The position numbers and the translations under genes were made by a program. From an uncultured bacterium (GTDB lineage Bacteria > Fidelibacterota > Marinisomatia > Marinisomatales > JAHJCW01): a stretch of 64,000 nucleotides of DNA. Position 1 is the first letter of the stretch; each line of letters opens with the position of its first letter. The stretch lies in assembly GCA_964634215.1 (NCBI GenBank), contig CAZWKR010000009.1, forward strand, positions 10,764 to 74,763, written 5' to 3'. The notes under the pieces were generated by a model. That model had not been told where the DNA came from. It was given only the letters and a program-made list of their open reading frames with translations, and did no database searches. Positions 14,307 through 59,736 of the stretch are shown in pieces.

Positions 14307-15467
14307 CTAAATCAAATCTGCGAGACTTTTACTCAAATCAAATTTATATTTTTTGACGTCAATTTTGGGGTCATGCCATACACCATAATTGCCTGCCATG
14401 ATCAATTTTTGGATATATGATTTTGTTAGAGCTTCTGTACATTTATTATCGTACCAACGAATATCGATCTTTGAACTTGTTTCACTTATAGCGCCAAGCA
14501 TGGCGGATAAGAAAGTTTGACGATTCTCGGTATCGGTATTGATCTTGCAAAATCCAGCTTCGATCAATCCTTCAATCTGAGCCCAATCTGTTCCAACAAA
14601 ATCCAACCACTTCTGTTTGGAATTTGTTGGAACATTCATTTTATCTAATTGTTCAACAGCATATTTGACTACTTCGGGATAAAGTGTAGAAGCACCATGT
14701 GCTACAAATGTTATTTCAGGATTAATTCCATCAGCAACAGCAAGCAATTCATGTGCTAACTTAATATTTAATTTAACTTTCGAACCCGGTTTGCCTTTAT
14801 TTGGTCCATGCATAGTTCCAATTGTTGGCGCTAACATTAAAACACCGCTGTGTCTTAAAAATTGATCTAATTCATCTGGATTTGTATATGTTGAAAACTC
14901 AGATTTGGTGTCTTCATCTTCTTCGCCTGCTAAAACTCCTAATTCACCCTCCACCGAAAGTCCAAGTGGATGCGCCATATCGACAACTTCGCGAGTCAAG
15001 TCAGCATTATCCTGCAATGGCATTGCTCGCTTTTTTACCTTATCGGTAGAGTTGTCTGCCATGACACTTGTTAAATGCTGAACGGATGCTTGCACAACTC
15101 GCCGTCCTGCATCGGAGATGTAATCTCCGTGATCCAAATGGGTAGCAATTCTCACATTAGACCTAGCCGCTTTTTTAGCGATATAGTCAGAAGCAATTTC
15201 CAATCCATAAATAGCATCGCCCTCGCCAAAATGTTTTAGTGCCGAATTCGATACTGCTAAAAGTCCTGAGGATCCCAATAACTCAAATGCTTTGAACGCC
15301 GCATTTATTCCCTGAAAATGTGTAATGTTGAATGCTGGCACAGCATACCGCTTACCTTTTTGATTTCCCTTTTCTCCATTTTTCGCTTTTAAACACAATG
15401 CATGCGCAGTCATCATATTTGTTGGAAATCTTCTATCTGTATTTAATTTGGGGGGTAATTTTTTCAT
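14307..15467 (-). CDS. fba: Class II fructose-bisphosphate aldolase (long form)
   Basis: Class II motifs are present: VPAFN, THLDHG, SVMADNS, VEGELGVLAGEEDE, GTMHG, CKINTDTE. Confidence 0.75.
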   Translation of the reverse strand: MKKLPPKLNTDRRFPTNMMTAHALCLKAKNGEKGNQKGKRYAVPAFNITHFQGINAAFKAFELLGSSGLLAVSNSALKHFGEGDAIYGLEIASDYIAKKAARSNVRIATHLDHGDYISDAGRRVVQASVQHLTSVMADNSTDKVKKRAMPLQDNADLTREVVDMAHPLGLSVEGELGVLAGEEDEDTKSEFSTYTNPDELDQFLRHSGVLMLAPTIGTMHGPNKGKPGSKVKLNIKLAHELLAVADGINPEITFVAHGASTLYPEVVKYAVEQLDKMNVPTNSKQKWLDFVGTDWAQIEGLIEAGFCKINTDTENRQTFLSAMLGAISETSSKIDIRWYDNKCTEALTKSYIQKLIMAGNYGVWHDPKIDVKKYKFDLSKSLADLI

Positions 15468-15485
15468 GATATCTCCTTAATAAAT

Positions 15486-16676
15486 TTAAATTTGTCCAAT
15501 TGATTTCAATAATGTTTGAAACCATCCTTGTTTAATATCAAATTCTTTTCCACCTTTAATTCTTTGAAAATCGATGAGTTTTAACTCATCATTAGCTTCA
15601 TAATCCATTCCTACAACGCCGTTTTTACCGGCGATTGCACTTTCAGCCGCCAACATTGATGATCCCTTAATTAACGCTAAATCGCGATCATTTGGTGCAG
15701 CAGACCTTGCAAAATATCCACTTTTTTGTACCATAGTTCTGTCCGCTTCTAATTCTTTTGAAAACTGTTTCGCGAACCATTTCCCGGGATTAATTTTATC
15801 CAATTTCACGTGACCAAAAGCATCACGGGGGACTTCCTCTCCATTAGATTCCATTTCAGATACTATTTCATCTTTTCCTGCGCCCTCGCTTAGAAATATA
15901 TTTACGCAATCTTTTTTATCCATCAACTTTTTCAAACGCGCTATTTCCGATTTCATATCAATATTTAATTCGGGTACATATACTGCATCAATATCCCATC
16001 TGTCTTGTGATAGTTGAATTTCCGGTAAAAATGTTCGTTTATTTAAACGATGCCGATACGCAACTGCCGTCGCTGCAGTTAGCCACCCGCAATGGCGACC
16101 CATAACCTCATGAATAATTAATTGGCGAGTACTTGTTGTATTTTCATTAGCAATATTTTCAAAGAAAATGGCGCCCTGTTCGGCGGCTGTTAATGCTCCT
16201 AAGGTTTGAGTAATTGGTATAACATCATTATCAACGGTTTTGGGCATTCCTACAACAGTCAAATTGTAATTATTTTCTTTTAAATATTTAGCTAATTCCG
16301 CTGCCATGGTATTGGTATCATCACCACCGATTGTATGCAAAATGTCAACTTTATCCTTTACTAACTGATTGGCTGCAACTTCCAATGGATTTTCTCCTTC
16401 TTTAACATAACCATTCTTCACACAATCTTCAATATTAGTAAGTTTCACGCGACTATTACCAATCGGGCTACCGCCAAATTCATACAAGGTTTTTGCATTA
16501 CTTTTTACAGATTCAGGAATTGTAATGCTTTTCCCAAGTAGAAGACCACGGTAACCATTTAGATATCCTAGTAGCTCAGCATTTGGAGAAAGTTTATTAT
16601 ATTCCTCGATCAATGCTCCAATCGAAGCAGATAAGCAAGGTGCTATACCTCCGGCTGTTAAAAATGCTATTTTCAT
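15486..16676 (-). CDS. pfp: Pyrophosphate-dependent 6-phosphofructokinase
   Basis: PFK family. It has GGDDTN (Asp where ATP-PFK has GGDGS) and MPKTVDND (Lys where ATP-PFK has Gly). These are the two classical PPi-specificity residues. Confidence 0.8.
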   Translation of the reverse strand: MKIAFLTAGGIAPCLSASIGALIEEYNKLSPNAELLGYLNGYRGLLLGKSITIPESVKSNAKTLYEFGGSPIGNSRVKLTNIEDCVKNGYVKEGENPLEVAANQLVKDKVDILHTIGGDDTNTMAAELAKYLKENNYNLTVVGMPKTVDNDVIPITQTLGALTAAEQGAIFFENIANENTTSTRQLIIHEVMGRHCGWLTAATAVAYRHRLNKRTFLPEIQLSQDRWDIDAVYVPELNIDMKSEIARLKKLMDKKDCVNIFLSEGAGKDEIVSEMESNGEEVPRDAFGHVKLDKINPGKWFAKQFSKELEADRTMVQKSGYFARSAAPNDRDLALIKGSSMLAAESAIAGKNGVVGMDYEANDELKLIDFQRIKGGKEFDIKQGWFQTLLKSIGQI

Positions 16677-18779: not shown

Positions 18780-19781
18780 TTAATCCAATTCTCGTAGTAG
18801 ATCAATCAAATCAACAACGCGATTAGAATAACCCCATTCATTATCATACCAATTTAGTGTCTTTACAAAATTACCATCAATAACCCGAGTGAATGGTGCA
18901 TCATAAATTGATGAATGTGGGTTACCAATAATATCACTAGATACTACCGGTAAAGTGGAATATTCCAATACCTTCTTTAAACGTTTCGATGAAGCTGCTG
19001 CTTTTACTGCTCCGTGTATCTGATCGGGAGTCACATCATGTTTAAGTTGCGCTACTAAATCTACTACTGAGCCATCGGGAACCGGTACGCGCATTGCAAT
19101 ACCGTCTAGCTTGCCTTTTAGTTCGGGCAAGACAACTCCAACAGCTCGCGCTGCTCCGGTTGTCGTAGGTATCACATTTTCTGCAGCAGTACGACCACGA
19201 CGCCAATCACTATGTGGTACATCCGCAAGGCGTTGGTCATTTGTGTAAGCGTGGATCGTATTAATAACACCATATTCAATACCGAATGCATCATTTAAAA
19301 CTTTTGCCATTGGTGCTAAGCAATTTGTTGTACAACTTGCATTTGAGATAATGCGGTGTTCCTTATTCAATCCGTCGTCATTTACACCAATAACAACTGT
19401 ATAATCAATTTCATCTTTGGCTGGTACTGTTAAAATTACGCGCTTAGCACCGGCTTTTAAGTGTGCGGATAAAGTTTCCTTGGTACGAAAAATTCCGGTT
19501 GCTTCGATCACAATATCAATTCCGAGTTCCCCCCATGGAAGGTCTTCCGGATTTCTCTCTTCCAACATTTTTACTTTATTTTCACTTGTTTCAAGAACAT
19601 CGCCTTTCAATTCAACTTTATCAGGGAAACGTCCCATCACCGTATCATATTTCAATAAATATACTAATGAATCCGATGGTGAAATATCATTGATAGCTAC
19701 AATCTCAATATCATCTCGAGCATTCATAATACGAAATACTGATCGACCAATTCTTCCAAAACCATTAAGTGCAATTCTCAT
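18780..19781 (-). CDS. gap: Glyceraldehyde-3-phosphate dehydrogenase, type I (canonical)
   Basis: NGFGRIGR NAD motif, active site SNASCTTNCLAP, HAYT, TTGAARAV and RVPVPDGS are all present. Confidence 0.9.
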   Translation of the reverse strand: MRIALNGFGRIGRSVFRIMNARDDIEIVAINDISPSDSLVYLLKYDTVMGRFPDKVELKGDVLETSENKVKMLEERNPEDLPWGELGIDIVIEATGIFRTKETLSAHLKAGAKRVILTVPAKDEIDYTVVIGVNDDGLNKEHRIISNASCTTNCLAPMAKVLNDAFGIEYGVINTIHAYTNDQRLADVPHSDWRRGRTAAENVIPTTTGAARAVGVVLPELKGKLDGIAMRVPVPDGSVVDLVAQLKHDVTPDQIHGAVKAAASSKRLKKVLEYSTLPVVSSDIIGNPHSSIYDAPFTRVIDGNFVKTLNWYDNEWGYSNRVVDLIDLLRELD

Positions 19782-20797
19782 TATTTCACCTCCAATTTTG
19801 AATAGGCTTCAATTAGTTCGAGTATCCGTTTGGAAAAACTCCATCCATTATCATACCAACAGAGTGTTTTTAACAACTTTTCTTGAGTTATCATAGTTGC
19901 TTTTCCATCAAAAATCATTGTCTCACTTGTTCCTAATACATCAGATGAAACAATTGGATCATCGGTGTAACCGACGATTCCATTCAGCGAACCATCTGCA
20001 TATGATTTAATAGCTTCATTTAATTCCTTAACAGAAGGCATATTTTTTAATTCTGTTGATAGATCAACACAGGAGCCATCAGGAACCGGAACGTTAAGTG
20101 CCATACCGGCTAATTTACCTTTGAATTTCGGCATTAATTCGCCGACTAAGCGTGGCGATTCATTATCGTTAGGAATAATATTTTCCACTGCCGAGCGACT
20201 ACGTCGCAAATCAGAACGAACTGCATCAGCAAGCGGTTGATCAGAAGTATAAGCATGAATTGAGGTCATCATTGCTCTTTCAACACCGAATTTTTCATCG
20301 AGCATTTTGACCATTAATGCCAATACCTGCGTAGTTGATGACGTAACCGAAATCAGCTTATCGTCAGCATCAATTTCATCTTCATTGATTCCTGCAATGA
20401 CGATACGATCGCCTGCTTCTTCCGGTGGGACAGCAACGATTACACGTTTCGCTCCTTCATCAATATGTGCCTGCAAATCAGCACGATGATGATATTTGCC
20501 GGTTGCATCTATCACAAAATCAACATTATATGCATCCCAAGGAATACTTCCCGGTTTGCCACCTTCCAATAACCTGGTATTTTGATGACGCACCTTTAAA
20601 TAATTGCCATCAAGAACAACATTTTCTGTCATTGTACCATAAACGGAATCCCGCATTAGAAGATAATGCATTGCTTCCTGTTCACCCAAATCACTGATTG
20701 CCACAAAATCAAATAAAGGATTGTCATATCCTAATCGAAATAAATTCCGACCGATGCGACCAAAGCCCATTATACCAATTCTAATTTTCTTTTTCAT
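19781..20797 (-). CDS. GAPDH-like paralog lacking catalytic Cys (active-site-degenerate)
   Basis: The same fold and NAD motif (MGFGRIGR) are present. By manual alignment to the neighbouring gap, the active site reads SVTSSTTQVLAL (Cys to Ser, second Cys to Val), TTGAA is replaced by NDNES, and RVPV is replaced by NVPV. Its stop overlaps the gap start (TAATG). Confidence 0.8.
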   Translation of the reverse strand: MKKKIRIGIMGFGRIGRNLFRLGYDNPLFDFVAISDLGEQEAMHYLLMRDSVYGTMTENVVLDGNYLKVRHQNTRLLEGGKPGSIPWDAYNVDFVIDATGKYHHRADLQAHIDEGAKRVIVAVPPEEAGDRIVIAGINEDEIDADDKLISVTSSTTQVLALMVKMLDEKFGVERAMMTSIHAYTSDQPLADAVRSDLRRSRSAVENIIPNDNESPRLVGELMPKFKGKLAGMALNVPVPDGSCVDLSTELKNMPSVKELNEAIKSYADGSLNGIVGYTDDPIVSSDVLGTSETMIFDGKATMITQEKLLKTLCWYDNGWSFSKRILELIEAYSKLEVK

Positions 20798-35278: not shown

Positions 35279-35941
35279 TTAGTTTTGTATTGAATAGAAT
35301 GTCTTATATATTTGTCGTAATCTGCCTGCTGTCATTCCGATTCCATAAATTATTATGCAATAGAATAATAAGTTTGAATTCAAAGCCCAATCAACTATTG
35401 CTAACATCGTTATCACATTCATAGAATCTGGATAACGAAAAAGGGATTGAATAAATCCTCGTCTTTTAATATCTAATCCACTGTTAGTTGATGAAATGAT
35501 TTTTTCGGTTTTTATTGTAAATAATGCCGCTAGAAATCCAGCTATAAGCGTTAAAATCTGTCCGGTCTCTAAAAATAGACCCAACCCTAATCCAAAATAG
35601 TAAAATGGGATTACTATCATATGCCCAATTAAGTCCAAGAATTTTCCGCTTTCACTCTGTTGGTTTTTCCATCTAGCTACTTCGCCGTCGCTACAATCTA
35701 AAATGTATCCTAGTTGTAAAAACAATGCTCCCAAGACATATCTTCCAAAACCAAATAGAATTGCTCCAATTACACCTAATATCTCCTGAAGAATTGTTAC
35801 TTGGTTTGCAGAAATTGGTGTTCGAACAAATACCCATGTAAATAAAATGGAAATTGGTCTTACTACATATTTGGCGTACGGTTCAGGTTCAACATCCTTT
35901 TGAACAATTTTTTTAAGATTTTTTAATGTTGGGCCAGTCAT
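35279..35941 (-). CDS. CDP-alcohol phosphatidyltransferase-family membrane enzyme (DIPPS-like small form)
   Basis: Signature D-CS-DG-EV-AR-x8-G-KFL-D-LIG-H: the family motif DxxDGxxAR..G...D...D with the last Asp replaced by His (manual alignment). About 6 TM. It overlaps the upstream nucleotidyltransferase by 4 nt. Confidence 0.75.
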   Translation of the reverse strand: MTGPTLKNLKKIVQKDVEPEPYAKYVVRPISILFTWVFVRTPISANQVTILQEILGVIGAILFGFGRYVLGALFLQLGYILDCSDGEVARWKNQQSESGKFLDLIGHMIVIPFYYFGLGLGLFLETGQILTLIAGFLAALFTIKTEKIISSTNSGLDIKRRGFIQSLFRYPDSMNVITMLAIVDWALNSNLLFYCIIIYGIGMTAGRLRQIYKTFYSIQN

Positions 35942-36666
35942 TTATAAAAAACACTATCTATTAACGATTTAGCTTCTTCAAAATCTTCTAAAAAATCAAT
36001 TTCTTTGCTTGGCAGATCTGACACATCTTCGTAATAGAGTGCATTTTCTGATAACAACGGGTCAATCGCAGCTTCAAAATAATCCGATTTACCTCCTGCA
36101 TAAATCAGATTGTTCAAAGATTCAAAAAACTCTTTCATAAACACATCTGAAAATTTAGCAACGCCGATAAATTCCCCTAACGAATTTTCTTCTATTAGTT
36201 TTTTCCCTATCGCAACAATGCGATTATTCTCACCTTCTATGACCTTAACCTCCTCCTGACCACATTGTTTAATTTCAACTGCTAGGAGATTTTTTTGTTT
36301 TGAAACTACTAAGCGTTTTAGTAACTCGATTGGAAACAACACATCTGCATTCATTAATAAGATATCATCATCACGGGCAATTTCTTGACACAACCATACT
36401 GAATAAGAAGTATTTGTTTCAAAAAAATGATGATTGGTTATTACTGATAATTTAAAATCACTATGGTTTTTATTAATATGATCAATGAACAACTCTTTAT
36501 AGTAACCTAATACAAGTACTATTTCAGATATACCTATTGATCTTAATGCATCTAATTGATAGTCAATTATTGGTTTATTATTAATTTTCAGTAAACTTTT
36601 TGGTGTGTCCAATGTTAATGGATACAACCTACGGGACACTCCAGCTGCTAGGATTATTGCTTTCAT
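35938..36666 (-). CDS. Nucleotidyltransferase (LicC/IPCT-like alcohol- or sugar-phosphate cytidylyltransferase)
   Basis: N-terminal MKAIILAAGVSRRLYPLT...PKSLL is the NTP-transferase signature. 242 aa. Confidence 0.75.
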   Translation of the reverse strand: MKAIILAAGVSRRLYPLTLDTPKSLLKINNKPIIDYQLDALRSIGISEIVLVLGYYKELFIDHINKNHSDFKLSVITNHHFFETNTSYSVWLCQEIARDDDILLMNADVLFPIELLKRLVVSKQKNLLAVEIKQCGQEEVKVIEGENNRIVAIGKKLIEENSLGEFIGVAKFSDVFMKEFFESLNNLIYAGGKSDYFEAAIDPLLSENALYYEDVSDLPSKEIDFLEDFEEAKSLIDSVFYK

Positions 36667-36675
36667 GCCATAAAT

Positions 36676-37818
36676 TTACGCAGTATTTGTGCTCACATTC
36701 TCTGAAAGAATGTCATCAATTATCATTTTTATTCTATTTGACGTTTTACCATCACATTTATAAAAATATTTTTCCTTATCTTGCATTACGTTATCAATCC
36801 TATCTTGCGTTGGATTTAATGCATTATAAATAGCATCTTTTAACTGTAAAGGAGAATCTATATGAATAAATGAATTCTTTAGGAATTTATCATCGCGTAA
36901 TAGTAGCGGTTCATCATCAGTATGTTTCAAATTATTATCATTTAAGTCATAAACTATACCAACTTTATTAGTAATTAAGAATTCTGAAATAGCACCCGAT
37001 GCCTCTGAAATAATAGTATCAGCAACAGCATACAACGGAACAATATTATAGTTGTCACGAGGAATTAATACAGCATGATCATACTGCGATATTCTTTTTT
37101 TAACACTCTTGCTCTGATTGCGATTAGCATATTTACCCATCCATGAATAATGATGAAGCTTGATAATTAAATTATAATCTTTTGTAGCATTAAATATTTC
37201 GTCCTTTAAATCATATAACGAAGTCGGTTTATACGTTGGTGCATAAAGGATTGTTTTCTTGCCATGATCAAGGCCAAGCTTGGATAATATTTTTTTCTTA
37301 TTAAACTTGTTATTAATAATAGGATCTATTTTTGGAAAGCCTACAATTTTAGTTTCTGAAGAACCAAGGCAATCTGCATCGGTTAGTTTATCGACTGCAT
37401 ATTGGCTTTCTGCAAATATTAAATATTTATCGTTTTTATGTTTTCTCAGTTCCCTAAATGTAACAGATTTATTAAAGATCGGACCATGATAAATCATACA
37501 AATTATACTACTCTGATAATTGCTGCCTTTCACTACATCTGAAACAAAAACAACATCGAACTTTTCATTTTTTTTTGCTGTTCTTACATTGTTATCGATA
37601 AATTTTTTTAAATACTCCTTATTTTTTTTTCTCCTAAATATTCCAAAATGATAATCAAAATCATGAGATAATGTAACTGCAATATCATAGCTTTTATCAT
37701 GACTAAATATTTCAATTACCGGTTCTAATGCAGGTAAATGGTATAAATAATTTAATTTGAATAATATTTTTTTTGATTTGGTCATTTCTATTGGGAGACT
37801 AACTGTCGAGTTTTCCAT
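36676..37818 (-). CDS. CDP-glycerol glycerophosphotransferase family protein (TagB/TagF-like)
   Basis: Glyphos_transf hallmarks are present: ILYAPTYK, HHYSW, and ISEASGAISEF near the C-terminus. An alternative start at 37785 (MTKSKK) would remove the 31-nt overlap with the upstream gene. Confidence 0.75.
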   Translation of the reverse strand: MENSTVSLPIEMTKSKKILFKLNYLYHLPALEPVIEIFSHDKSYDIAVTLSHDFDYHFGIFRRKKNKEYLKKFIDNNVRTAKKNEKFDVVFVSDVVKGSNYQSSIICMIYHGPIFNKSVTFRELRKHKNDKYLIFAESQYAVDKLTDADCLGSSETKIVGFPKIDPIINNKFNKKKILSKLGLDHGKKTILYAPTYKPTSLYDLKDEIFNATKDYNLIIKLHHYSWMGKYANRNQSKSVKKRISQYDHAVLIPRDNYNIVPLYAVADTIISEASGAISEFLITNKVGIVYDLNDNNLKHTDDEPLLLRDDKFLKNSFIHIDSPLQLKDAIYNALNPTQDRIDNVMQDKEKYFYKCDGKTSNRIKMIIDDILSENVSTNTA

Positions 37819-38813
37819 CTATTCAATTTATCAATCATATTAAATTTATTTTTAGATGGTCGTCCATTTGTCAAAATATTAGATACTGCATCTACCATTC
37901 GCTCGGATGATTTACCATCATTATATGGGTGTAATTCATCGAGATAAAACATGCGACTATCTTTAAATTCATCCGGGTCATTAAGTGCACGAACTATTGC
38001 CCCTTCTAAATCTAAGGATGAAAAAATATTAATTCCTTTATCGACTCGGGTTTTGGCGTTAAATGTTATTATAGGTTTGTCAAAAAGTAGGTATTCATAT
38101 GCAACAGACGATGTATCCGTTAGTAAAACATCCGATTCAGACATATTTCGCAATATAGTGTGATCAGTAACCATTCTGAAATTATCACTCTCTAAAAATT
38201 TATATTGTTCTACCAACCGATCATCCATTAATTCATGAAACTTAATAATCCAGTTATAATCAAGATTTTGGAGAGATTTTATCGTATCGAAAAGTTTATA
38301 GGCAGAAGTTAGTTTTTTACTAAAGGTAGGAGCATATAGAATTGTTGGATAATTGTTTTTAAATATTGACGATTTGAAATCCTCCCAAGTATTTCTATCG
38401 TCTAATTTAGGCCAGCCTGTTTCTATAATTATATATTTTCCATTTTTGTTTTTATTTTTAAATTTATTAGTAATAAATGGACCTGGTGTACAGTACACAT
38501 CAAAAAGTCCATTTAGACGGTAATGGCCATGTTTTTCTTCACCTAAACCATGAAATATTTGAATTTTAAGTCCAGACCAATGAGATGGTACGACATTGCC
38601 TGGTGCAAATATTACATCTGGATTGTATTGCATTACCTTTTCATTTGTCTCTAGCCAAATATCTTTTTTTAATCCAAAGCGATTATTAGTAGTAGAAAAC
38701 CAATACACTTCTCCACGATCATTATTTAAAATTAAATCGTATAATGGTTTTAATATTGGATATGAATAATCCTTTGTTAAGAAAAGTAAATATTTAGTTG
38801 CTTTATTAGCCAT
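37788..38813 (-). CDS. CDP-glycerol glycerophosphotransferase family protein (TagB/TagF-like), second copy
   Basis: ILYAPTFS, KFHE and LLTDTSSVAYEYLLFDKPII match the TagF-family C-terminal catalytic domain. Confidence 0.75.
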   Translation of the reverse strand: MANKATKYLLFLTKDYSYPILKPLYDLILNNDRGEVYWFSTTNNRFGLKKDIWLETNEKVMQYNPDVIFAPGNVVPSHWSGLKIQIFHGLGEEKHGHYRLNGLFDVYCTPGPFITNKFKNKNKNGKYIIIETGWPKLDDRNTWEDFKSSIFKNNYPTILYAPTFSKKLTSAYKLFDTIKSLQNLDYNWIIKFHELMDDRLVEQYKFLESDNFRMVTDHTILRNMSESDVLLTDTSSVAYEYLLFDKPIITFNAKTRVDKGINIFSSLDLEGAIVRALNDPDEFKDSRMFYLDELHPYNDGKSSERMVDAVSNILTNGRPSKNKFNMIDKLNRWKTRQLVSQ

Positions 38814-38947
38814 TTAAGTAATATCGAATCAATTGCTTCACCGGAAACTATATGAACCAAGTATTCTTGATGTTACTAAATAATTAGTAATAACATATTG
38901 TAACCTGGTAAATTTACCCTACTTGATTAAGTATACAAATTTTCTTA

Positions 38948-39949
38948 ATGAAAAAAGTTACAAAAAACAATAGACCAATATTTATTGTGGGTTGTGAAAG
39001 GTCTGGCACCACAATGTTAAGATTAATACTTCATTCCCACGCAAATATTGCGATACCGCCTCAAACTAAATACGTAAAAAAAATTTACAAACGGAGAATA
39101 TTTTTTGGCAATTTATCAAAACTAAAAAATCGAAATAAAATTATTCATTGGTTTTCTAATAATCATAACAAAAAAACAAAAATTATTGATTTAGGTCTAG
39201 ATCCAAATGATATACAAAATGAGATGATGAAATCCGGTGATAGTTTAGGTTCAATTTTATCAACAATATTTCAACTCTATTCTAATAAACTTAATAAAAA
39301 TCGTTGGGGAGATAAACATCCCTATTATATTAAATATCTAGATCAATTATTTAATCTTTTTCCCGATGCTCAGGTTGTCCATATTGTTCGTGATGGACGT
39401 GATGCAGTTGCATCATTAAAAACAATGCCGTGGTGGAAAAATGATAGTATTTATTCTATGTTAAATTGGCAGGAAGCCATTTCTAATGGTAAAAAAGCTA
39501 AATTAAAATATAAATCTAATCAATTTATTGAAATACGATATGAAGACATAATTGATGAACCTGAAAAACATATTAAATCATTATGCAGTTTTCTCGATGA
39601 AAAATATTCACCAAAAATGTTAGAATTTTATAAAATTGCAGATGCAGCAGTACCCAATTATAAAATGGGTTGGCACTCAGATACAAAATCACAAATGAGT
39701 TCTAAGAAAATTGGTCGTTGGCAAAAAGATTTAGAACCTTGGGAATCAAATTTAATGAATCGCAAAATGAAGAAAGAATTATTACAACACAATTATGAAA
39801 TACCCAATTTCCACGGTAAAATTCCATTTTGGAAGTCAATTAATTATTTAATAATTAAATTACACTATAAAATAACTCAATATACGCTGTTGATAGCAGA
39901 TAAGATTATGACCATATTTTATCCTTGGTCACTGGATTATAGAAAATAG
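38948..39949 (+). CDS. PAPS-dependent sulfotransferase family protein
   Basis: 5'-PSB loop CERSGTTML and 3'-PB motif VRDGRDAVAS. 333 aa with a hydrophobic C-terminal tail. It is the only plus-strand gene inside the minus-strand polymer locus. Confidence 0.75.
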   Translation: MKKVTKNNRPIFIVGCERSGTTMLRLILHSHANIAIPPQTKYVKKIYKRRIFFGNLSKLKNRNKIIHWFSNNHNKKTKIIDLGLDPNDIQNEMMKSGDSLGSILSTIFQLYSNKLNKNRWGDKHPYYIKYLDQLFNLFPDAQVVHIVRDGRDAVASLKTMPWWKNDSIYSMLNWQEAISNGKKAKLKYKSNQFIEIRYEDIIDEPEKHIKSLCSFLDEKYSPKMLEFYKIADAAVPNYKMGWHSDTKSQMSSKKIGRWQKDLEPWESNLMNRKMKKELLQHNYEIPNFHGKIPFWKSINYLIIKLHYKITQYTLLIADKIMTIFYPWSLDYRK

Positions 39950-39953
39950 ACAC

Positions 39954-40694
39954 TTAATTAGTTATATTTGAAAATAACTTTTCGGCATTCTTCAGATCCT
40001 CTTCAGTATCAATTTCATACCAAGCTGTTTTATTAAAATTTACTGCTTCTAATAAAAATTTATTTTCTGATACGGCTTTTGCTATAGCTTGTTCATAATA
40101 TACATGTTTCTGCCCGGATTCTATTAAATAATATAAGTTCGGCTCGACAAATTTGTTAAATGAATTATAACTAAAACTATAAATATTGACGGTTTTATAA
40201 AGATTGTAAATATTGTCTTTTGGGAACTTATCTGCTTTTAAAATAAACTCAATTACATTATTTTTCTTATCAATATCAATTAGAGTACCATCCATATATT
40301 GTTTGTAATTATCAACGGCTATTCTATCAGGTAATAACATATTTTTGAACGCATCCCAAGTAAAAATTAAATCGCCCTCAAGTAGTATAAAATCTTCCTT
40401 GATATACGGGACTGCGAGGTTTAATGAGACAACATTATTTGTAGTTTCCCAATCTTTGTTGTGTACATACTGAATAGTCATATCACCATAATTATTGCCC
40501 ACAAGAGATTGTATCTTTTCACCTTTATAACCAATAACTAAAATAACTTTTTCAATTCCGCCTAATTGCAAAAATTCAAGCATTCTGATTAAAAGAATTT
40601 GATTATTTACAGGTATTAAACACTTTGGAATTTCGTTAGTATAAGGTTTTAATCTAATTCCACCACCCGCCAGTAAAAACACTGCTAATTTCAT
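39954..40694 (-). CDS. Nucleotidyltransferase (LicC-like cytidylyltransferase), second copy
   Basis: MKLAVFLLAGGGIRLKPYTNEIPKCLIPV is the NTP-transferase signature. 246 aa. Confidence 0.7.
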   Translation of the reverse strand: MKLAVFLLAGGGIRLKPYTNEIPKCLIPVNNQILLIRMLEFLQLGGIEKVILVIGYKGEKIQSLVGNNYGDMTIQYVHNKDWETTNNVVSLNLAVPYIKEDFILLEGDLIFTWDAFKNMLLPDRIAVDNYKQYMDGTLIDIDKKNNVIEFILKADKFPKDNIYNLYKTVNIYSFSYNSFNKFVEPNLYYLIESGQKHVYYEQAIAKAVSENKFLLEAVNFNKTAWYEIDTEEDLKNAEKLFSNITN

Positions 40695-40700
40695 TCGGTA

Positions 40701-41324
40701 TTATTTCTTCTTCTTTGGTTTATGATCCGAATAAATAATTGCACCATCATCTTTTGCAAATCTCCACTTTTTCTTAGGTGTTTTCCAATCCCCGTAACGA
40801 AATTGCAAATATTCTTCTTTTTTAACAGGTAAAAAATAATCGTTATTGTTAAAATTTACTTTTTCTAAATCATCATAAAAATGCGCCGGGACTGCTTTTT
40901 TAGTGTATTTTCGTTCACCGCCACAAGACCAAATATATTGGTCGTTATTTTTTGTGGCAATGAAGCAATCCATCATAACCTCACCTTTAAAAAATAATTT
41001 CTTCTTACTGAAAACCTTAATTAACCGAGCTTCACCTTTTTTCAATGGTGGATCTTCTTTTTCTTGATATCTAACTCGAGTAATATATCCAGCTTTTTTC
41101 ATTTTAGATAATGATTTAAGCAACTTCTTGCGGTCTTCGCTAAATACTCTTAAATCCATATCTCTATCCCAGGGTAGCAATCTATCCTCCCTTACTATTC
41201 CAAGCAAAGTACCAGCGGTTACAGAATATTTTATATTCGACTCGTCAAAGATTGTTGTTACATCTTTTAACATTTTTAAAGCAATCTTAAGATTTTCACC
41301 CGTGAGTGTATATTTACCAGACAT
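40701..41324 (-). CDS. LicD-family phosphotransferase (phosphocholine / polyol-phosphate transferase family)
   Basis: The LicD motif TAGTLLGIVREDRLLPWDRDMDL is present, including the DxD. Confidence 0.75.
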   Translation of the reverse strand: MSGKYTLTGENLKIALKMLKDVTTIFDESNIKYSVTAGTLLGIVREDRLLPWDRDMDLRVFSEDRKKLLKSLSKMKKAGYITRVRYQEKEDPPLKKGEARLIKVFSKKKLFFKGEVMMDCFIATKNNDQYIWSCGGERKYTKKAVPAHFYDDLEKVNFNNNDYFLPVKKEEYLQFRYGDWKTPKKKWRFAKDDGAIIYSDHKPKKKK

Positions 41325-41333
41325 ATCTATTTA

Positions 41334-42425
41334 TCACATAATTTGTTCTAGTAATTGATGTACATCTTCTTTACTTATTTTTATAACGTTATTGGAGATT
41401 CTGCTTTTAGTGAATGATCTCTCAACTATTTCATCGATATTTTCGCTTTTAATTCCCCACTTACTTAAATTAAAATCAATTACATTCTTTGGAATGTCTA
41501 GTATTTGTTTTTCCAATTCTTCGTAATTAATATTTACAAATGATAATAATTTATTGATTTCATCTGCAATTGCTTCTTTATTCAACCGTAATAAAGGAAT
41601 AATTGGTAAGGAACAGGCAATTCCATGTGGTATGTTATAAGTAAAAGTTAATGGATAACTAATAGAATGTGCTGCTGCGGTTTTTGTATTTGAAAATGCT
41701 AATCCTGCCAAATTAGATGCTCTTAATAATTTTGTTCTAACTTCTAGATCTGTGTGATTTTTTTTCAGTTTTGGTATTTCTTCAATGATCAATTTAATAG
41801 ATTTATATGCATACTCTAAAGATTGAGGATTAGAATTTTTATTCCAAATTGTTTCGAAACTATGGCTTAACGCATCCAAAACTGTTATTATTGAGAGTTG
41901 GATATCCATAGTAACAGTCAATTTTGCGTCTAAAATTGCTATGTCAGGATATAACGAGAGATGAGAAAGAGAATATTTTTGCTTCTCTTCCATATTCCAT
42001 ATTGCTCCCCACATTGTAACTTCACTTGCAGTCCCATGCGTGGTGGGTATAAAAATTGCAGGAATACGATTTGGAAATTGTGTTTCATAATCTATTAATT
42101 CTCTTAATTCGTAAACATTAGTACCTATTGCAGCCATCATAACTTTTGCTGTATCCATTACAGATCCGCCACCTAAAGCAATTATACCATCACATTTTAC
42201 ATTCTTCACAAAATTTATTGCTTCTTCACAACTCACAAATGTAGGATTATTTTGAATGTCTGTAAAAATGCGTTCCATATTAATAACATCTGATAGTTGA
42301 TTCCTCTCAACATTTCCTTTAGATGTTACAAACAAGGGATTCTGGATATTTAGTTCCTGTTTACATTTCTCAAGAGTACGTTCCCAATCATGAGTCTCTA
42401 TTATTTTTACTGGATTATTATACAT
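41334..42425 (-). CDS. Iron-containing (group III) alcohol dehydrogenase family protein
   Basis: GGGSVMDTAK nucleotide motif plus the His-rich metal site (LSHSFE, AAAHSISY, PHGIA). 363 aa. Confidence 0.75.
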   Translation of the reverse strand: MYNNPVKIIETHDWERTLEKCKQELNIQNPLFVTSKGNVERNQLSDVINMERIFTDIQNNPTFVSCEEAINFVKNVKCDGIIALGGGSVMDTAKVMMAAIGTNVYELRELIDYETQFPNRIPAIFIPTTHGTASEVTMWGAIWNMEEKQKYSLSHLSLYPDIAILDAKLTVTMDIQLSIITVLDALSHSFETIWNKNSNPQSLEYAYKSIKLIIEEIPKLKKNHTDLEVRTKLLRASNLAGLAFSNTKTAAAHSISYPLTFTYNIPHGIACSLPIIPLLRLNKEAIADEINKLLSFVNINYEELEKQILDIPKNVIDFNLSKWGIKSENIDEIVERSFTKSRISNNVIKISKEDVHQLLEQIM

Positions 42426-42455
42426 TTATATTCTGGTTACAGATAACTTATTAAA

Positions 42456-44291
42456 CTATTTGTTAAACTGATATTCATACAACCTTTTATACAAGCCACC
42501 TTTATCTAAAAGGTCTTTATGTGTTCCTGATTCTGCGATTTGTCCTTTTTCTAGAACAATTATTTTATCTGCTTTTTGAATTGTTGAAAGTCGATGAGCA
42601 ATAACTAACACTGTTCTATCATTCATTAATCTTTCTAATGCTTCTTGTACAAGTTTTTCTGACCGGGTATCCAATGATGATGTTGCTTCATCCAAAATTA
42701 AAATTGGAGGGTTGTCCAATACGGCTCGTGCAATTGCTAGCCGCTGTCTTTGTCCACCCGATAATCGCACACCTTTATCACCGATTATTGTGTCAAAACC
42801 ATTCGGTTGTTCTAGAATGAAATCGAGTGCGTTAGCAGTTTTGGCGGCAGAAATTACCTCATTGTCATTAACATTAGGCAATCCATAAGCAATATTGGCA
42901 CGTATTGTATCATTAAATAATATTGTTTCTTGTGTTACAATTCCCATTAGCTTGCGCAACGATTTTGTTGATACATTTCTTAAATCATTTCCATCAATTG
43001 ATATTACCCCATCAGTCACATCATAAAATCTCGGTACAAGATCAGCGATCGTAGATTTACCGGCACCACTTTCACCAACTAGTGCAACTACCTCGCCCTT
43101 CTTAATTGTAAAAGTGACATCCGATAATATTATATCTTCATAGTTATTATATGCGAAACTCACATTATTAAACTCAATTGTGTTTTTAAAAGAATCCAAA
43201 TGTTGTGCATCTGGATGGACAAAAATATCTGATTTAGAATCTAACTTTCCAAATACACGTTCAGCAGATGCTAAACCAGTTTGAATTTCCATATTCACAT
43301 TGCTCAATAATCTGATAGGTGCTAATGCACTAAATAGGACCAAGATGAATCGTAAAAAATCTTCCGAAGTCATAGATTGATCTACTAGCACTTTGTTTCC
43401 ACCAATAATAATTAAGACAGCCGCTACACAAACTCCGATAATTTCTGTTAACGGTACTGCTAAAAGACGTAATCTTGCTCGATGTAGTATTAATTTAAAA
43501 AATTTAAATGTCTCTTTTTGAAATCGTTGGTTTTCAAAATTTTCAGTTGTAAAAGCTTTTACTATACGTATTGAGTTTAATGTTTCGGTATTGACGTTTG
43601 TAATATCGGCAATTTTTGCCGCAATGCGACGCGACTTTCGTCTGACACTTCGCCCAATGGTGGTTATTGCAACACCCGTTATGGGGACAATTAATATGGC
43701 AATTAACGCCAATTGTGTATTAATGATAAATAATAAAACAATAAATGCAATGATATTAAGCGGTTCAACAAATGCTCGCTGAAAACCGACAGTAAATGCA
43801 CGACGCATGTTGCTCACGTCGGTTATTATTATAGAAGTCAGCTCACCGGATTTTTGTTTGTTGAAAAATGATAATGAAAGTGAAAGATATTTTTTATACA
43901 GATTATTTCTGAGTGTGGTGATAAAATTATATTGAACATGTGTTATTAATATATTTTTAATATATAGGAATAGATTTTTTAGCAGAAAAACAATTATAAT
44001 TAATATAGATAGAACTTTTAATGTTTCAAATGCTGTATCGCGAAGAATGAAATTGTTTGTCCAATACTTAAATTGTTGATTTAAACTTAAATCTACAGCA
44101 TTTTTAAAGGTTTCATGCTCGGATAAAAATTCTTGAAAATTACCCAGAATACTATTTAATAACGATGCAGTAAACCAAATAGATGCGCTATTAAATGCAA
44201 CATAGAATAGTGCCGCTAAAGTGGACCCGGTAAGGTATGGCCAATACGGTTTAATCAACCTCAGTAATCGTTTATATATAGATTCGTTCAT
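42456..44291 (-). CDS. ABC exporter, fused TMD-NBD half transporter (MsbA-like)
   Basis: 611 aa. An N-terminal 6-TM domain is followed by Walker A GESGAGKST, signature LSGGQRQR and Walker B ILILDEATS. Confidence 0.85.
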   Translation of the reverse strand: MNESIYKRLLRLIKPYWPYLTGSTLAALFYVAFNSASIWFTASLLNSILGNFQEFLSEHETFKNAVDLSLNQQFKYWTNNFILRDTAFETLKVLSILIIIVFLLKNLFLYIKNILITHVQYNFITTLRNNLYKKYLSLSLSFFNKQKSGELTSIIITDVSNMRRAFTVGFQRAFVEPLNIIAFIVLLFIINTQLALIAILIVPITGVAITTIGRSVRRKSRRIAAKIADITNVNTETLNSIRIVKAFTTENFENQRFQKETFKFFKLILHRARLRLLAVPLTEIIGVCVAAVLIIIGGNKVLVDQSMTSEDFLRFILVLFSALAPIRLLSNVNMEIQTGLASAERVFGKLDSKSDIFVHPDAQHLDSFKNTIEFNNVSFAYNNYEDIILSDVTFTIKKGEVVALVGESGAGKSTIADLVPRFYDVTDGVISIDGNDLRNVSTKSLRKLMGIVTQETILFNDTIRANIAYGLPNVNDNEVISAAKTANALDFILEQPNGFDTIIGDKGVRLSGGQRQRLAIARAVLDNPPILILDEATSSLDTRSEKLVQEALERLMNDRTVLVIAHRLSTIQKADKIIVLEKGQIAESGTHKDLLDKGGLYKRLYEYQFNK

Positions 44292-48345: not shown

Positions 48346-49224
48346 ATGATACAAAGATATTATCAAATAATCTCTTTAATTTTTCTAATTGTATTACCAA
48401 TACCCGGAGAAACCCACACTGTTAGCAACCAACAAAGAAATGAATTTGGAATAATCCTGATCAACGATGCATTATTTCAAACCGATAAAGATAACACAGG
48501 ATCATTTGGCGTATTTTATAAATTTAAGTTATATCCACTATCAATTAAATATCAGATCGATGCCTACACACCAAACGCTAAATATAAAGAATTAACAGTA
48601 CCTAAAGAGGGTATGCATCCTTATGCAGGATTTGGATTTATAGGAACAGAATATAAAATTCAAAATAATAATTTCTTACTTTGTTTGTGTATGCAATTGG
48701 GTGCAACCGGTAATAAGTCTCTTGCGAGAGAACTACAAGACATAACACATAACAGCCTTAATCAATCTACATTTGCAGGTTGGGATTCACAAATTCAAGC
48801 AAAATTCGGCTATATATTCAATCCACAACTAGAATATATCTTCAACACAGAATATTTTACACTTTTACCTGCTATTAGTGTGAAAATTGGTAATCTGATA
48901 TCTACACAAACTATTGGAATACAGCTCATTAGTGGTATTAATTATAATAAGGACTTTCTTTTTACTAATTTTTCAAAGAAATCAAATTATAATATTTTTA
49001 TATCATATGAAATTTCTAATATTTCTAAAAATGTATTCTTAACGGGTTTTGAGGGATATAAATATGGTGTTAATATTATTAATACTGTTTGCGAATTAAA
49101 AGTTGGAATGGATATTCAGTTCATGTCATACGGTGTTACAATTCAGAACCATTATAGAAGCAGTGAATATAAATCGCAAAATGATAATAAATTCACTACT
49201 ATAGTCATTTATTATAAAATTTAA
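48346..49224 (+). CDS. Outer-membrane protein, possible lipid A deacylase LpxR family (DUF2219-like)
   Basis: N-terminal hydrophobic signal. INDALFQTDKDNTGSFG resembles the ENDxx..DRxYTnG start of LpxR-family barrels, and ITHNSL....AGWDSQ resembles its central motif. This is from memory and was not searched. Confidence 0.45.
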   Translation: MIQRYYQIISLIFLIVLPIPGETHTVSNQQRNEFGIILINDALFQTDKDNTGSFGVFYKFKLYPLSIKYQIDAYTPNAKYKELTVPKEGMHPYAGFGFIGTEYKIQNNNFLLCLCMQLGATGNKSLARELQDITHNSLNQSTFAGWDSQIQAKFGYIFNPQLEYIFNTEYFTLLPAISVKIGNLISTQTIGIQLISGINYNKDFLFTNFSKKSNYNIFISYEISNISKNVFLTGFEGYKYGVNIINTVCELKVGMDIQFMSYGVTIQNHYRSSEYKSQNDNKFTTIVIYYKI

Positions 49225-58578: not shown

Positions 58579-59727
58579 ATGTCTAAACAGCAGATTAAAC
58601 AAGCTTTTGCTGAAAATATAGCACAGAACTTTGATGCTTACGGATTTTCCCGTCGTGATTTCATTAAATTCTGTACGGCAATCACTGCTACAATGGGTTT
58701 ACCATTCAGCATGTCTAAATTGATTGCAAAAACAATTGAAGACCCCGCACGACCACCGGTTATTTGGTTGCATTTTCAAGAATGCACAGGATGTACAGAA
58801 TCACTTTTACGAGCAACACATCCAAAAGTTGAAACTCTTGTATTAGATCTAATTTCCTTGGATTACTCAGAAACACTATGCGCTGCTGCCGGACATCAGG
58901 TTGAGAAATCATTGCATGATTCCATGGAGAAAAATAAGGGTAAATATATATTGGTGGTTGAAGGTTCAATACCAATGAAAGATGATGGAATTTATTGTAA
59001 GGTAGCTGGTAAAACAGCTTTACAGTCCGTAAAGGAAGTCGGTGAACATTGCGCAGCCGCAATTGCGATTGGTTCATGCGCGTCATGGGGCGGAGTACAA
59101 TCAAGCGGACCAAACCCAACAGGTGCTACACCACTCCATAAAGTTCTCGAAGGTAAACCTATTATTAATATACCTGGCTGTCCACCTAATCCATACAATT
59201 TCCTTTCGACAGTTTTGTATTACTTGACTTTAGGAAAACTACCGGAGCTTGATTCTAAAGGTAGGCCAAAATTTGCTTACGGCAGATTAATCCATGAAAA
59301 TTGCGAACGGCGTCCGCATTTTGATGCTGGTAGATTCGCAGACCAGTTTGGCGATGATGGTCATCGTGAAGGATGGTGTTTATACAAACTCGGCTGCAAA
59401 GGACCAGAGACATATGCAAATTGCCCATCTATCTTATTCGGTGATGTTGGCTCAGGTTCTTGGCCTGTTGGCACTGGACATCCATGTTTTGGTTGTTCTG
59501 AAGAAGGTGTGGGTTATACCAAACCGATACATGAACAAGCTGAAGTAAAGACATTTACACCGGGAGCAATTTATCCCGATATACATTCTGAGAAAAAAGG
59601 CGGTGTGAATGTAACAGGAGCGGCAGTTACTGCCGGAGCAGCAGTGGTTGGAGCAAAGCTGGTATCCGACGTATCAAAAAAATTGGGTGAGCACGACCAA
59701 AAAGAATCTTCAACTACTAAATCATAG
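58579..59727 (+). CDS. hybO: [NiFe] hydrogenase small subunit (Tat-exported, C-terminal membrane anchor)
   Basis: Twin-arginine signal SRRDFIKF. FeS ligand motifs are present: ECTGCTES, GSCASWGG, PGCPPNP, CERRPHF, C.YKLGCKGP, GHPCFGCSE. Hydrophobic C-terminal tail. AAGGAGG RBS. Confidence 0.9.
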   Translation: MSKQQIKQAFAENIAQNFDAYGFSRRDFIKFCTAITATMGLPFSMSKLIAKTIEDPARPPVIWLHFQECTGCTESLLRATHPKVETLVLDLISLDYSETLCAAAGHQVEKSLHDSMEKNKGKYILVVEGSIPMKDDGIYCKVAGKTALQSVKEVGEHCAAAIAIGSCASWGGVQSSGPNPTGATPLHKVLEGKPIINIPGCPPNPYNFLSTVLYYLTLGKLPELDSKGRPKFAYGRLIHENCERRPHFDAGRFADQFGDDGHREGWCLYKLGCKGPETYANCPSILFGDVGSGSWPVGTGHPCFGCSEEGVGYTKPIHEQAEVKTFTPGAIYPDIHSEKKGGVNVTGAAVTAGAAVVGAKLVSDVSKKLGEHDQKESSTTKS

Positions 59728-59736
59728 GAGGAAGTT

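Follow-up and report, generated by a model that had tools for sequence, protein, structure and literature searches.

The DNA analysed here, a 64,000-nucleotide (64-kb) stretch of contig CAZWKR010000009.1 from an uncultured bacterium of the Fidelibacterota (SAR406), hereafter the window, encodes a split, translationally coupled pair of a cytidylyltransferase and a small CDP-alcohol phosphotransferase (CDP-AP), the latter with histidine in place of the fourth signature aspartate (D4) of its family. On the alignments described below, this histidine is a clade-wide hallmark, neither a chance substitution nor an oddity of one gene. We lean modestly towards a reading of the sequences in which the pair would activate a small phospho- or phosphono-alcohol and transfer it to a membrane acceptor, priming or decorating a teichoic-acid-like polymer, with the histidine acting as base. 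The two genes and the signature lie as follows.

35938..36666, minus strand: NTP1, an inositol-1-phosphate cytidylyltransferase (IPCT)- or LicC-type cytidylyltransferase of 242 aa (PF00483 and PF12804; match to LicC, 1jyk)
35279..35941, minus strand: His-type CDP-AP of 220 aa with six transmembrane helices (PF01066; AlphaFold fold)
35621..35698, minus strand: signature D82-x2-D85-G-x2-A-R-x8-G99-x3-D103-x3-H107 (translation and hidden Markov model (HMM) alignment)

The TGA stop codon of NTP1 and the ATG of the His-type gene share four nucleotides in an ATGA junction (...AAATGACTGG), exactly the overlap between a 242-aa nucleotidyltransferase and a 220-aa CDP-AP that an earlier note on this DNA had read from the open reading frames (ORFs). 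The 220-aa protein matches CDP-OH_P_transf PF01066 (E 1.3e-10, 42.3 bits against a gathering cut-off of 22), and NTP1 matches NTP_transferase PF00483 (E 1.7e-16) in Pfam. Because LicC of Streptococcus pneumoniae (1jyk) aligns with it over the full length (residues 1-236, E 2.3e-19), NTP1 is by best match a phospho-alcohol cytidylyltransferase and not a sugar-1-phosphate enzyme. Known substrates of this cytidylyltransferase family include phosphocholine, inositol phosphate, phosphoglycerate and aminoethylphosphonate (PMC12275187; PMC6697681); NTP1 is 25-33% identical to all the cytidylyltransferases linked to GpsA, AraM or myo-inositol-phosphate synthase (MIPS), a spread that does not discriminate its substrate. 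A natural fusion of an NTP_transferase to a His-type domain is found in a 496-aa protein (P0258), and the 64-kb window holds no second CDP-AP gene.

The eight signature residues of the family, D1xxD2GxxAR...GxxxD3xxxD4, have been termed absolutely conserved (PMC4634129), and D4 has been taken to act as base in catalysis and to bind the second metal (PMC4634129; PMC6506517). Region 35698-35621 of the minus strand translates to DCSDGEVARWKNQQSESGKFLDLIGH, in which seven of the eight are kept (D82, D85, G86, A89, R90, G99 and D103) and D4 is His107 (codon CAT, 35623-35621). The earlier note had placed this residue by manual alignment. A phmmer comparison with PDB sequences laid the query's 'DligH' over the D3xxxD4 segment of four solved members, AF2299 (4o6m; 'DgvlD'), the Archaeoglobus fulgidus IPCT/di-inositol-phosphate-phosphate synthase, IPCT-DIPPS (4mnd; 'DsilD'), and two phosphatidylinositol-phosphate (PIP) synthases, and the manual register is therefore right. 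In a MAFFT alignment of 238 relatives the same column is 100% His in the His group and 100% Asp in the canonical neighbours, and no alignment gives Asp at this position in the window protein. The AlphaFold model, built on 40 homologues (pLDDT 93, pTM 0.88), has the six-transmembrane-helix core of AF2299, DIPPS and PIPS. Its best folds in a Foldseek search of the PDB are 4mnd (IPCT-DIPPS) and 4q7c (AF2299), with probability 1.00 and TM-scores of 0.69-0.71, followed by PIP synthases. The cytosine-contacting motif of the first transmembrane helix (TM1), P(D/N)xx(T/S), is present as A-N46-Q-V-T49, with Pro changed to Ala, and homology together with the i, i+4 spacing to D103 on helix 97-126 would place His107 beside the Asp triad. 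A wrong register is ruled out by the agreement of the four HMM alignments, the family alignment and the fold search, and a sequencing error (CAT for GAT) is ruled out because every close homologue keeps the histidine. Full-text literature searches for a D4-to-His variant returned nothing relevant. The 220-aa protein is thus a CDP-AP by homology and fold, yet one that departs from the canonical signature at D4.

All 120 of the closest database proteins, whose identity to the window protein runs from 100% down to 39%, have His at D4; 119 fit the motif pattern, and the remaining one (P0117) is also His. Those with named sources come from Neomarinimicrobiota/Fidelibacterota (SAR406) assemblies, except one labelled Planctomycetia. 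An exhaustive HMMER search over 1.84 billion sequences, each standing for a cluster at 50% identity, gave 6144 matches, 1153 of them at E <= 1e-10. Among the top 150 the motif was present in 142, with His in 133, Asn in four and Asp, Glu, Gly, Val and Tyr in one each. The histidine recurs in 56 of 56 further profile matches and in 76 of 80 proteins of a second marine group; a homology search seeded with an alphaproteobacterial member (L017) returned marine proteins only. A 40-sequence alignment shows D82, D85, G86, R90, G99 and H107 to be invariant in the clade and R28, S31, T35, N46, T49, E87, A89, S96, L102 and D103 to be more than 90% conserved. This retention of the CDP- and metal-binding signature residues, with the modelled DIPPS/AF2299-like fold, would be expected of an active enzyme. 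When the column of His107 was excluded from a neighbour-joining tree of 238 sequences, one clade of 210 still held 182 of the 183 His proteins, along with 15 proteins with Ala (a Streptomyces sublineage), six with Asn and a few with other residues. Of the 27 canonical Asp-type neighbours, with the AF2299-like 'GAWLDxxxD', 26 grouped in a clade of their own.

Genome scanning found relatives in WOR-3, Patescibacteria, Omnitrophota, DPANN archaea, Methanosarcinales, many Actinomycetota, Acidobacteriota, Bacillota and a metagenome-assembled genome (MAG) of Rhodobacterales; a scan of a viral contig collection found none. A 62%-identical His-type transferase of 217 aa does lie on a 27-kb phage-like contig (L090:8001-8654) that also carries genes for Rad52, YqaJ, a terminase, an HNH nuclease and a DNA methylase, and it may be a phage-borne modifier of the host surface. 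The Ala-bearing Streptomyces loci (L034, L037, L045, L051, L060 and others; motif ...LDRLGA) are nested in the His clade, and some of them keep the cluster layout of His-bearing relatives.

Members of the clade are named in databases only as 'CDP-alcohol phosphatidyltransferase family protein' or 'phosphatidylglycerophosphate synthase', and no characterised member was found among database names, NCBIfam equivalogs or the full-text literature. The second of these labels, borne by some homologues, would fit a phospholipid synthase of the usual CDP-diacylglycerol-dependent kind (PgsA, PssA, PIPS or similar) with a tolerance for His, as would weak matches of the window protein to the AIPS, PIPS and PssA models. 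The NCBIfam scores are far under the equivalog cut-offs (AIPS 50.4 against 180, PIPS 33.7 against 170, PssA 20.3 against 107), the PgsA equivalog is not matched at all, and the identities PgsA, PssA and PIPS are ruled out by these cut-offs; nor did any close homologue turn out to have a known PgsA or PssA function. The clade also stands apart from the sampled Asp-type neighbours, its gene is consistently coupled or fused to a cytidylyltransferase for a soluble substrate, and its setting is glycan clusters, not lipid operons. A phospholipid synthase of the ordinary kind is, to our minds, very improbable.

The setting in the window is a surface-polymer island, low in GC and hypervariable, whose minus-strand array is closed by NTP1 and the His-type gene and reads, in order, ABC exporter, iron-containing alcohol dehydrogenase (Fe-ADH), LicD, NTP2, a divergent sulfotransferase, two TagF-like genes, NTP1 and the His-type gene. 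The members upstream of NTP1 are these.

36676..37818, minus strand: TagF-like CDP-polyol phosphotransferase (a), 380 aa (PF04464, E 1.1e-12)
37788..38813, minus strand: TagF-like CDP-polyol phosphotransferase (b), 341 aa (PF04464, E 2.7e-17)
38948..39949, plus strand: divergent sulfotransferase (PF13469, E 2.1e-38)
39954..40694, minus strand: NTP2, a second LicC/IPCT-type nucleotidyltransferase, 246 aa (PF00483)
40701..41324, minus strand: LicD-family phospho-alcohol transferase, 207 aa (PF04991, E 1.9e-15)
41334..42425, minus strand: Fe-ADH, putatively of the phosphonate-associated type, 363 aa (PF00465 and PF25137)
42456..44291, minus strand: MsbA-like ABC exporter, 611 aa, the conserved upstream end of the island (TIGR02203, E 1e-153, below cut-off)

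NTP2 and NTP1 share 30% identity. GC content is down to 0.285-0.30 over 36-42 kb, against 0.33-0.36 in the flanks, and the dip matches the variable part of the island in position; a promoter and terminator scan of the island did no better than on shuffled sequence. Near the island, as is the MsbA-like exporter (42456-44291, minus strand), lies a gene for an LpxR-family lipid A deacylase (48346-49224, plus strand), which may indicate a link of the polymer or decoration with lipid A or lipopolysaccharide (LPS). Elsewhere in the window are tandem glyceraldehyde-3-phosphate dehydrogenase genes (18780-20797, minus strand; 333 and 338 aa), with class II aldolase and phosphofructokinase genes close by (14307-16676), and genes for NiFe-hydrogenase small-subunit-like, 4Fe-4S dicluster and NrfD-like membrane proteins (58579-61874, plus strand) in a region of GC 0.39-0.40.

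SAR406 relatives share the island site, with GNAT and ABC genes on one side and malic enzyme or an S8 peptidase on the other, and fill it in at least three ways.

Version A, the window (35279-44291), L001 and L093: LicD, NTP2 and sulfotransferase type, in the order of the window
Version B, L089:968-8636 and L094:2998-10678: phosphonate type, in the order ABC, double LicD, phosphoenolpyruvate (PEP) mutase fused to a TagD-like cytidylyltransferase, phosphonopyruvate decarboxylase, Fe-ADH, two TagF-like genes and His-type transferase
Version C, L092:4049-11773: inositol-phosphate type, in the order ABC, inositol-phosphate synthase, NTPa, three TagF-like genes, NTPb, His-type transferase and Fe-ADH

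The His-type transferase, two TagF-like genes, the Fe-ADH and the ABC exporter make up the constant core, to which versions A and C add NTP1. Orthologues of TagF-like (a) and (b) occur in all three versions (50-61% and 46-60% identical, respectively), the window ABC exporter is 81% identical to that of L089, and the sulfotransferase is limited to version A. Three versions at one site look like strain-level variation of an anionic surface polymer.

Version C bears on a reading close to the one suggested by the earlier note, in which NTP1 would be an inositol-1-phosphate cytidylyltransferase and the His-type enzyme would pass the activated group from CDP-inositol to inositol phosphate, as DIPPS does, or to diacylglycerol or ceramide in a Kennedy-like manner. 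The closest solved structures are indeed IPCT-DIPPS and AF2299, both window proteins match the IPCT/DIPPS model NF041135, a split NTP-transferase and CDP-AP route has been proposed for Bacteroidetes (PMC9246714), and the L092 His-type transferase, 79% identical to that of the window, sits in an island with an inositol-phosphate synthase (PF07994 and PF01658). On NF041135, however, the transferase reaches only 42.1 bits and NTP1 62.1 bits, where the cut-off is 580. The earlier note had remarked that the window lacks an inositol-phosphate synthase, and none was found among its ten ORFs of suitable size. In L092, the only fetched locus with a synthase, that gene adjoins NTPa, which is 25% identical to NTP1, has IPCT as its best NCBIfam match (109 bits) and arrives with an extra TagF-like gene; the NTP1 orthologue there is NTPb (69% identical). 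Since the core stays constant across versions, the inositol module (synthase, NTPa and the extra TagF-like gene) is an add-on, and the NTP1 orthologue and His-type gene occur with or without the synthase. The likeness to IPCT/DIPPS drawn in the earlier note therefore holds for the architecture, through the nearest solved relatives and the fusion P0258, and fails for an inositol or DIPPS-like role, against which stand the TagF/LicD/ABC island and the L092 NTPa. We rate the inositol reading as quite improbable.

Version B bears on a sub-case of our proposal, in which 2-hydroxyethylphosphonate, formed by the Fe-ADH through reduction of phosphonoacetaldehyde, would be converted into a CMP-phosphonate by a PntC-like activity of NTP1 or NTP2, and the His-type and TagF-like enzymes would build a phosphonate lipid or polymer from it. 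The best NCBIfam match of the window Fe-ADH is the phosphonate-type model TIGR03405, and the protein shares 58-60% identity with the Fe-ADH encoded immediately after PEP mutase and decarboxylase at the same site in L089 and L094. Both of those enzymes score above cut-off in version B (PEP mutase, TIGR02320, 393.6 bits against 319.6, with the motif EDKIGLKRNS; decarboxylase, TIGR03297, 462.5 bits against 312.5). The same module of PEP mutase, phosphonopyruvate decarboxylase and TIGR03405-like Fe-ADH adjoins the transferase in Pacificibacter, two Omnitrophota and a Bathyarchaeon, and in the SAR406 and Pacificibacter loci the PEP mutase is fused to a CTP_transf_like cytidylyltransferase domain. 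A Fom1-type PEP mutase with a fused PF01467 cytidylyltransferase makes CMP-hydroxyethylphosphonate (PMC6697681), and CDP-AP genes in phosphonate clusters have been noted before, by annotation only (PMC5987646). Set against this, the window Fe-ADH scores well under the family cut-off (243.9 bits against 423.7), a tblastn search with the L089 proteins found neither PEP mutase nor phosphonopyruvate decarboxylase in the 64 kb, and most His-type loci lack phosphonate genes. A phosphonate donor in the window is accordingly doubtful, albeit a possibility of some weight.

Beyond SAR406, a Pfam census of 22 non-redundant His-type loci counted 123 neighbours within 3 kb, an undercount because ORFs in high-GC loci were called crudely. 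Glycosyltransferase family 2 (GT2) leads with 11, ahead of methyltransferases (7), NTP_transferase (7), Fe-ADH (6), Wzx-type flippases (5), GT1/4 (5), ABC_tran (5), a second CDP-AP (5), ABC2_membrane (4), TagF-like (3), Stealth (2) and DUF5941 (2). About two thirds of the non-redundant loci have a LicC-type NTP_transferase no more than 8 kb away. Patescibacteria have Wzx, GpsA, NTP_transferase and the His-type transferase beside GT-C and GT2, with GpsA directly upstream, and Fidelibacterota have an LPS-core-like glycosyltransferase cluster followed by an Asp-type or other CDP-AP and then the His-type transferase. In a Calditrichota MAG (L082:6991-9822) and a related contig (L087:6249-9807), an ApgM-like phosphoglycerate-mutase-family protein and an S-adenosylmethionine (SAM) methyltransferase precede the His-type transferase, with an NTP_transferase ahead of the operon in L087 only and not in L082, which suggests yet another activated head group, possibly phosphoglycerate-type or methylated.

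The order in Streptomyces and other Actinomycetota is an Asp-type CDP-AP fused to DUF5941, NTP_transferase, an AraM-like glycerol-1-phosphate dehydrogenase (NF002022, 241 bits), the His- or Ala-type transferase, GT2, TagG and TagH; the AraM-like gene is directly upstream of the transferase in 20 actinobacterial loci. Such a cluster, as in Streptomyces sp. L061:4306-11484 and in some 20 further loci of Actinobacteria, L035, L058 and L071 among them, adjoins hopanoid-type SQS_PSY genes. It is a candidate for an LtaS-independent poly(glycerol phosphate) pathway of Actinobacteria; the Streptomyces synteny has been mentioned only by annotation (PMC13118837). The theme common to all these neighbourhoods appears to be a CTP-activated small hydroxyalkyl phosphate or phosphonate used in a locus for a surface glycopolymer or glycolipid.

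Guided by the gene structure, fold, motif, clade membership and genomic associations, we infer the following course for the window pair. NTP1 would couple CTP to a small phospho- or phosphono-alcohol, giving a CMP-linked donor (a CDP-alcohol or CMP-phosphonate). The His-type enzyme would hold this donor at its intact CDP/metal site, formed by N46 and T49 of TM1, D82, D85, G86, A89 and R90 of TM2 and G99 and D103 of TM3, and, releasing CMP, hand the phospho(no)alcohol on to an acceptor bound to the membrane. Candidate acceptors are lipids, for example diacylglycerol or a polyprenyl phosphate, and lipid-linked glycans. His107, in the place of the proposed catalytic-base Asp, would deprotonate or position the acceptor and may stand in for a carboxylate that binds the second metal. 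Extension or decoration of the product would then fall to the two TagF-like enzymes, further groups would be supplied by LicD with NTP2 and by the sulfotransferase, and the lipid-linked product would be exported by the MsbA-like ABC protein. Lovering et al. are said to have identified in 2010 a histidine as the general base for CDP-glycerol transfer in the TagF polymerase, which is unrelated to CDP-APs. The supply genes of the clade, namely GpsA, AraM-like and PEP mutase/decarboxylase/Fe-ADH, point to small hydroxyalkyl phosph(on)ates as donor groups. We rank glycerol phosphate first, because of the TagF partners and the GpsA and AraM links in other phyla, then 2-hydroxyethylphosphonate, because the window Fe-ADH is orthologous to that of version B, with inositol phosphate as the least likely.

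Several observations weigh against this proposal. The change of D4 to Asn (D93N) nearly abolishes the activity of the Mycobacterium tuberculosis PIP synthase (PMC4634129), so a histidine may or may not be able to serve there. Within the clade the histidine itself gives way to Ala (the Streptomyces sublineage, 15 loci) and sporadically to Asn, Gly and others, so that the residue is not universally essential or some members are inactive. The His-type gene often stands beside a canonical Asp-type paralogue in Actinobacteria and Fidelibacterota, and a non-catalytic partner role is therefore possible in some lineages. No alcohol-supply gene is linked to NTP1 in the window, and PEP mutase and phosphonopyruvate decarboxylase are missing from all 64 kb of it. 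Version B, finally, has no LicC-type NTP gene beside the His-type transferase, so the cytidylyltransferase domain of the PEP mutase fusion, or some other source, must supply the donor there.

The first three of these observations would equally suit a catalytically dead protein, a regulatory or scaffolding paralogue acting, for example, as heterodimer partner of a canonical CDP-alcohol transferase, and the solved family members are dimers (PMC4634129; PMC6506517). Yet D1, D2, D3, both glycines, the Ala-Arg pair and the Asn/Thr of TM1 are conserved as in active enzymes, and the histidine is nearly invariant. A canonical partner is wanting both in the window and beside the gene in SAR406 and Patescibacteria, where no other CDP-AP accompanies the His-type gene at its locus, and the window gene is translationally coupled to that of the enzyme making its presumed substrate. 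A dead paralogue thus seems improbable to us, and we retain the proposal of an active transferase working with NTP1.

Taken further, the proposal would cast His-type enzymes as the missing 'primer synthases' at the membrane in the making of lipid-anchored poly(hydroxyalkyl-phosph(on)ate) polymers by a widespread and so far undescribed route, a generalisation that we offer as speculative and rather unlikely. Glycerol phosphate or 2-hydroxyethylphosphonate, CMP-linked, would be passed to diacylglycerol or polyprenyl phosphate, with extension by TagF-like enzymes and ABC export to follow; were polyprenyl phosphate the acceptor, the nucleophile would be a phosphate, better suited to His than to Asp. 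Hydroxyethylphosphonate esters have been reported from marine dissolved organic matter. If the generalisation were true, SAR406 would make teichoic-acid-like or poly-phosphonate surface polymers, which could be a source of those esters, and the actinobacterial cluster of AraM-like, NTP_transferase, CDP-AP, GT2 and TagGH genes would be the long-sought LtaS-independent lipoteichoic acid pathway.

The His clade, which extends over bacteria of the candidate phyla radiation (CPR), DPANN and other archaea, Actinobacteria, SAR406 and more, is a natural test of the D4-base mechanism and its metal requirement, and hundreds of gene families that now bear the label 'CDP-alcohol phosphatidyltransferase family protein' could gain a function once one member is characterised. 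The swapping of modules in the SAR406 island points to variation of the surface polymer between strains of an abundant deep-ocean lineage, and may bear on who makes phosphonate-esterified polysaccharides.

Among known systems, the A. fulgidus IPCT-DIPPS (4mnd) and AF2299 (4o6m, 4q7c) are the best matches of the His-type enzyme in sequence and fold. They have in common with it the six-helix core, the DG-E-x-AR version of the motif and the Asn/Thr contacts of TM1 to CDP, and likewise a cytidylyltransferase paired with the transferase and a soluble CDP-alcohol donor, the latter predicted for the window pair. They differ in being fused and in having Asp at D4, where the window has two genes and His; identity is only about 20-22%, and IPCT-DIPPS belongs to compatible-solute synthesis in a hyperthermophile, whereas the window pair belongs to a surface-polymer island of a marine mesophile. 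The closest functional analogue with experimental support is CpgD/CpgA of Caulobacter ceramide diphosphoglycerate synthesis, also a split IPCT-like cytidylyltransferase and PF01066 membrane protein. CpgD makes CDP-glycerate in vitro, and genetics show that CpgA is needed for addition of the phospho-acid to a membrane lipid bound for the outer membrane. In contrast to the window pair, the genes are non-adjacent and the acceptor is a sphingolipid, and CpgA activity has not been reconstituted.

Synthesis of wall teichoic acid by TagD/TarD, TagB/TagF and TagGH uses, like the scheme proposed here, a CDP-polyol donor, a lipid-linked acceptor at the inner membrane face and ABC export. Points of contact are the TagF-like genes in the window operon and the TagG, TagH and AraM-like dehydrogenase genes beside actinobacterial His-type genes. 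The window activator, however, is LicC/IPCT-type and not TagD-type, the host is a diderm, and the canonical pathway has no counterpart of the integral-membrane CDP-AP enzyme. Phosphonate tailoring (Fom1-type PEP mutase, PntC and LicD-like enzymes) has the CMP-linked activation, LicC-like cytidylyltransferases and cell-surface decoration that we propose here, and sister SAR406 islands encode PEP mutase, decarboxylase and Fe-ADH, the first two of which the window lacks; to our knowledge no phosphonyl transferase of the CDP-AP family has been characterised. The inositol-lipid route proposed for Bacteroides and Prevotella, with an NTP transferase, a CDP-AP and a HAD hydrolase by MIPS, has the split pair and the Kennedy-like logic, but its CDP-AP was found with a pattern requiring Asp at D4, MIPS is adjacent, and the route is itself unconfirmed. 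Overall, by analogy, the window system would most resemble IPCT-DIPPS/AF2299 in its enzyme pair and TagD/TagF teichoic acid synthesis in its pathway logic.

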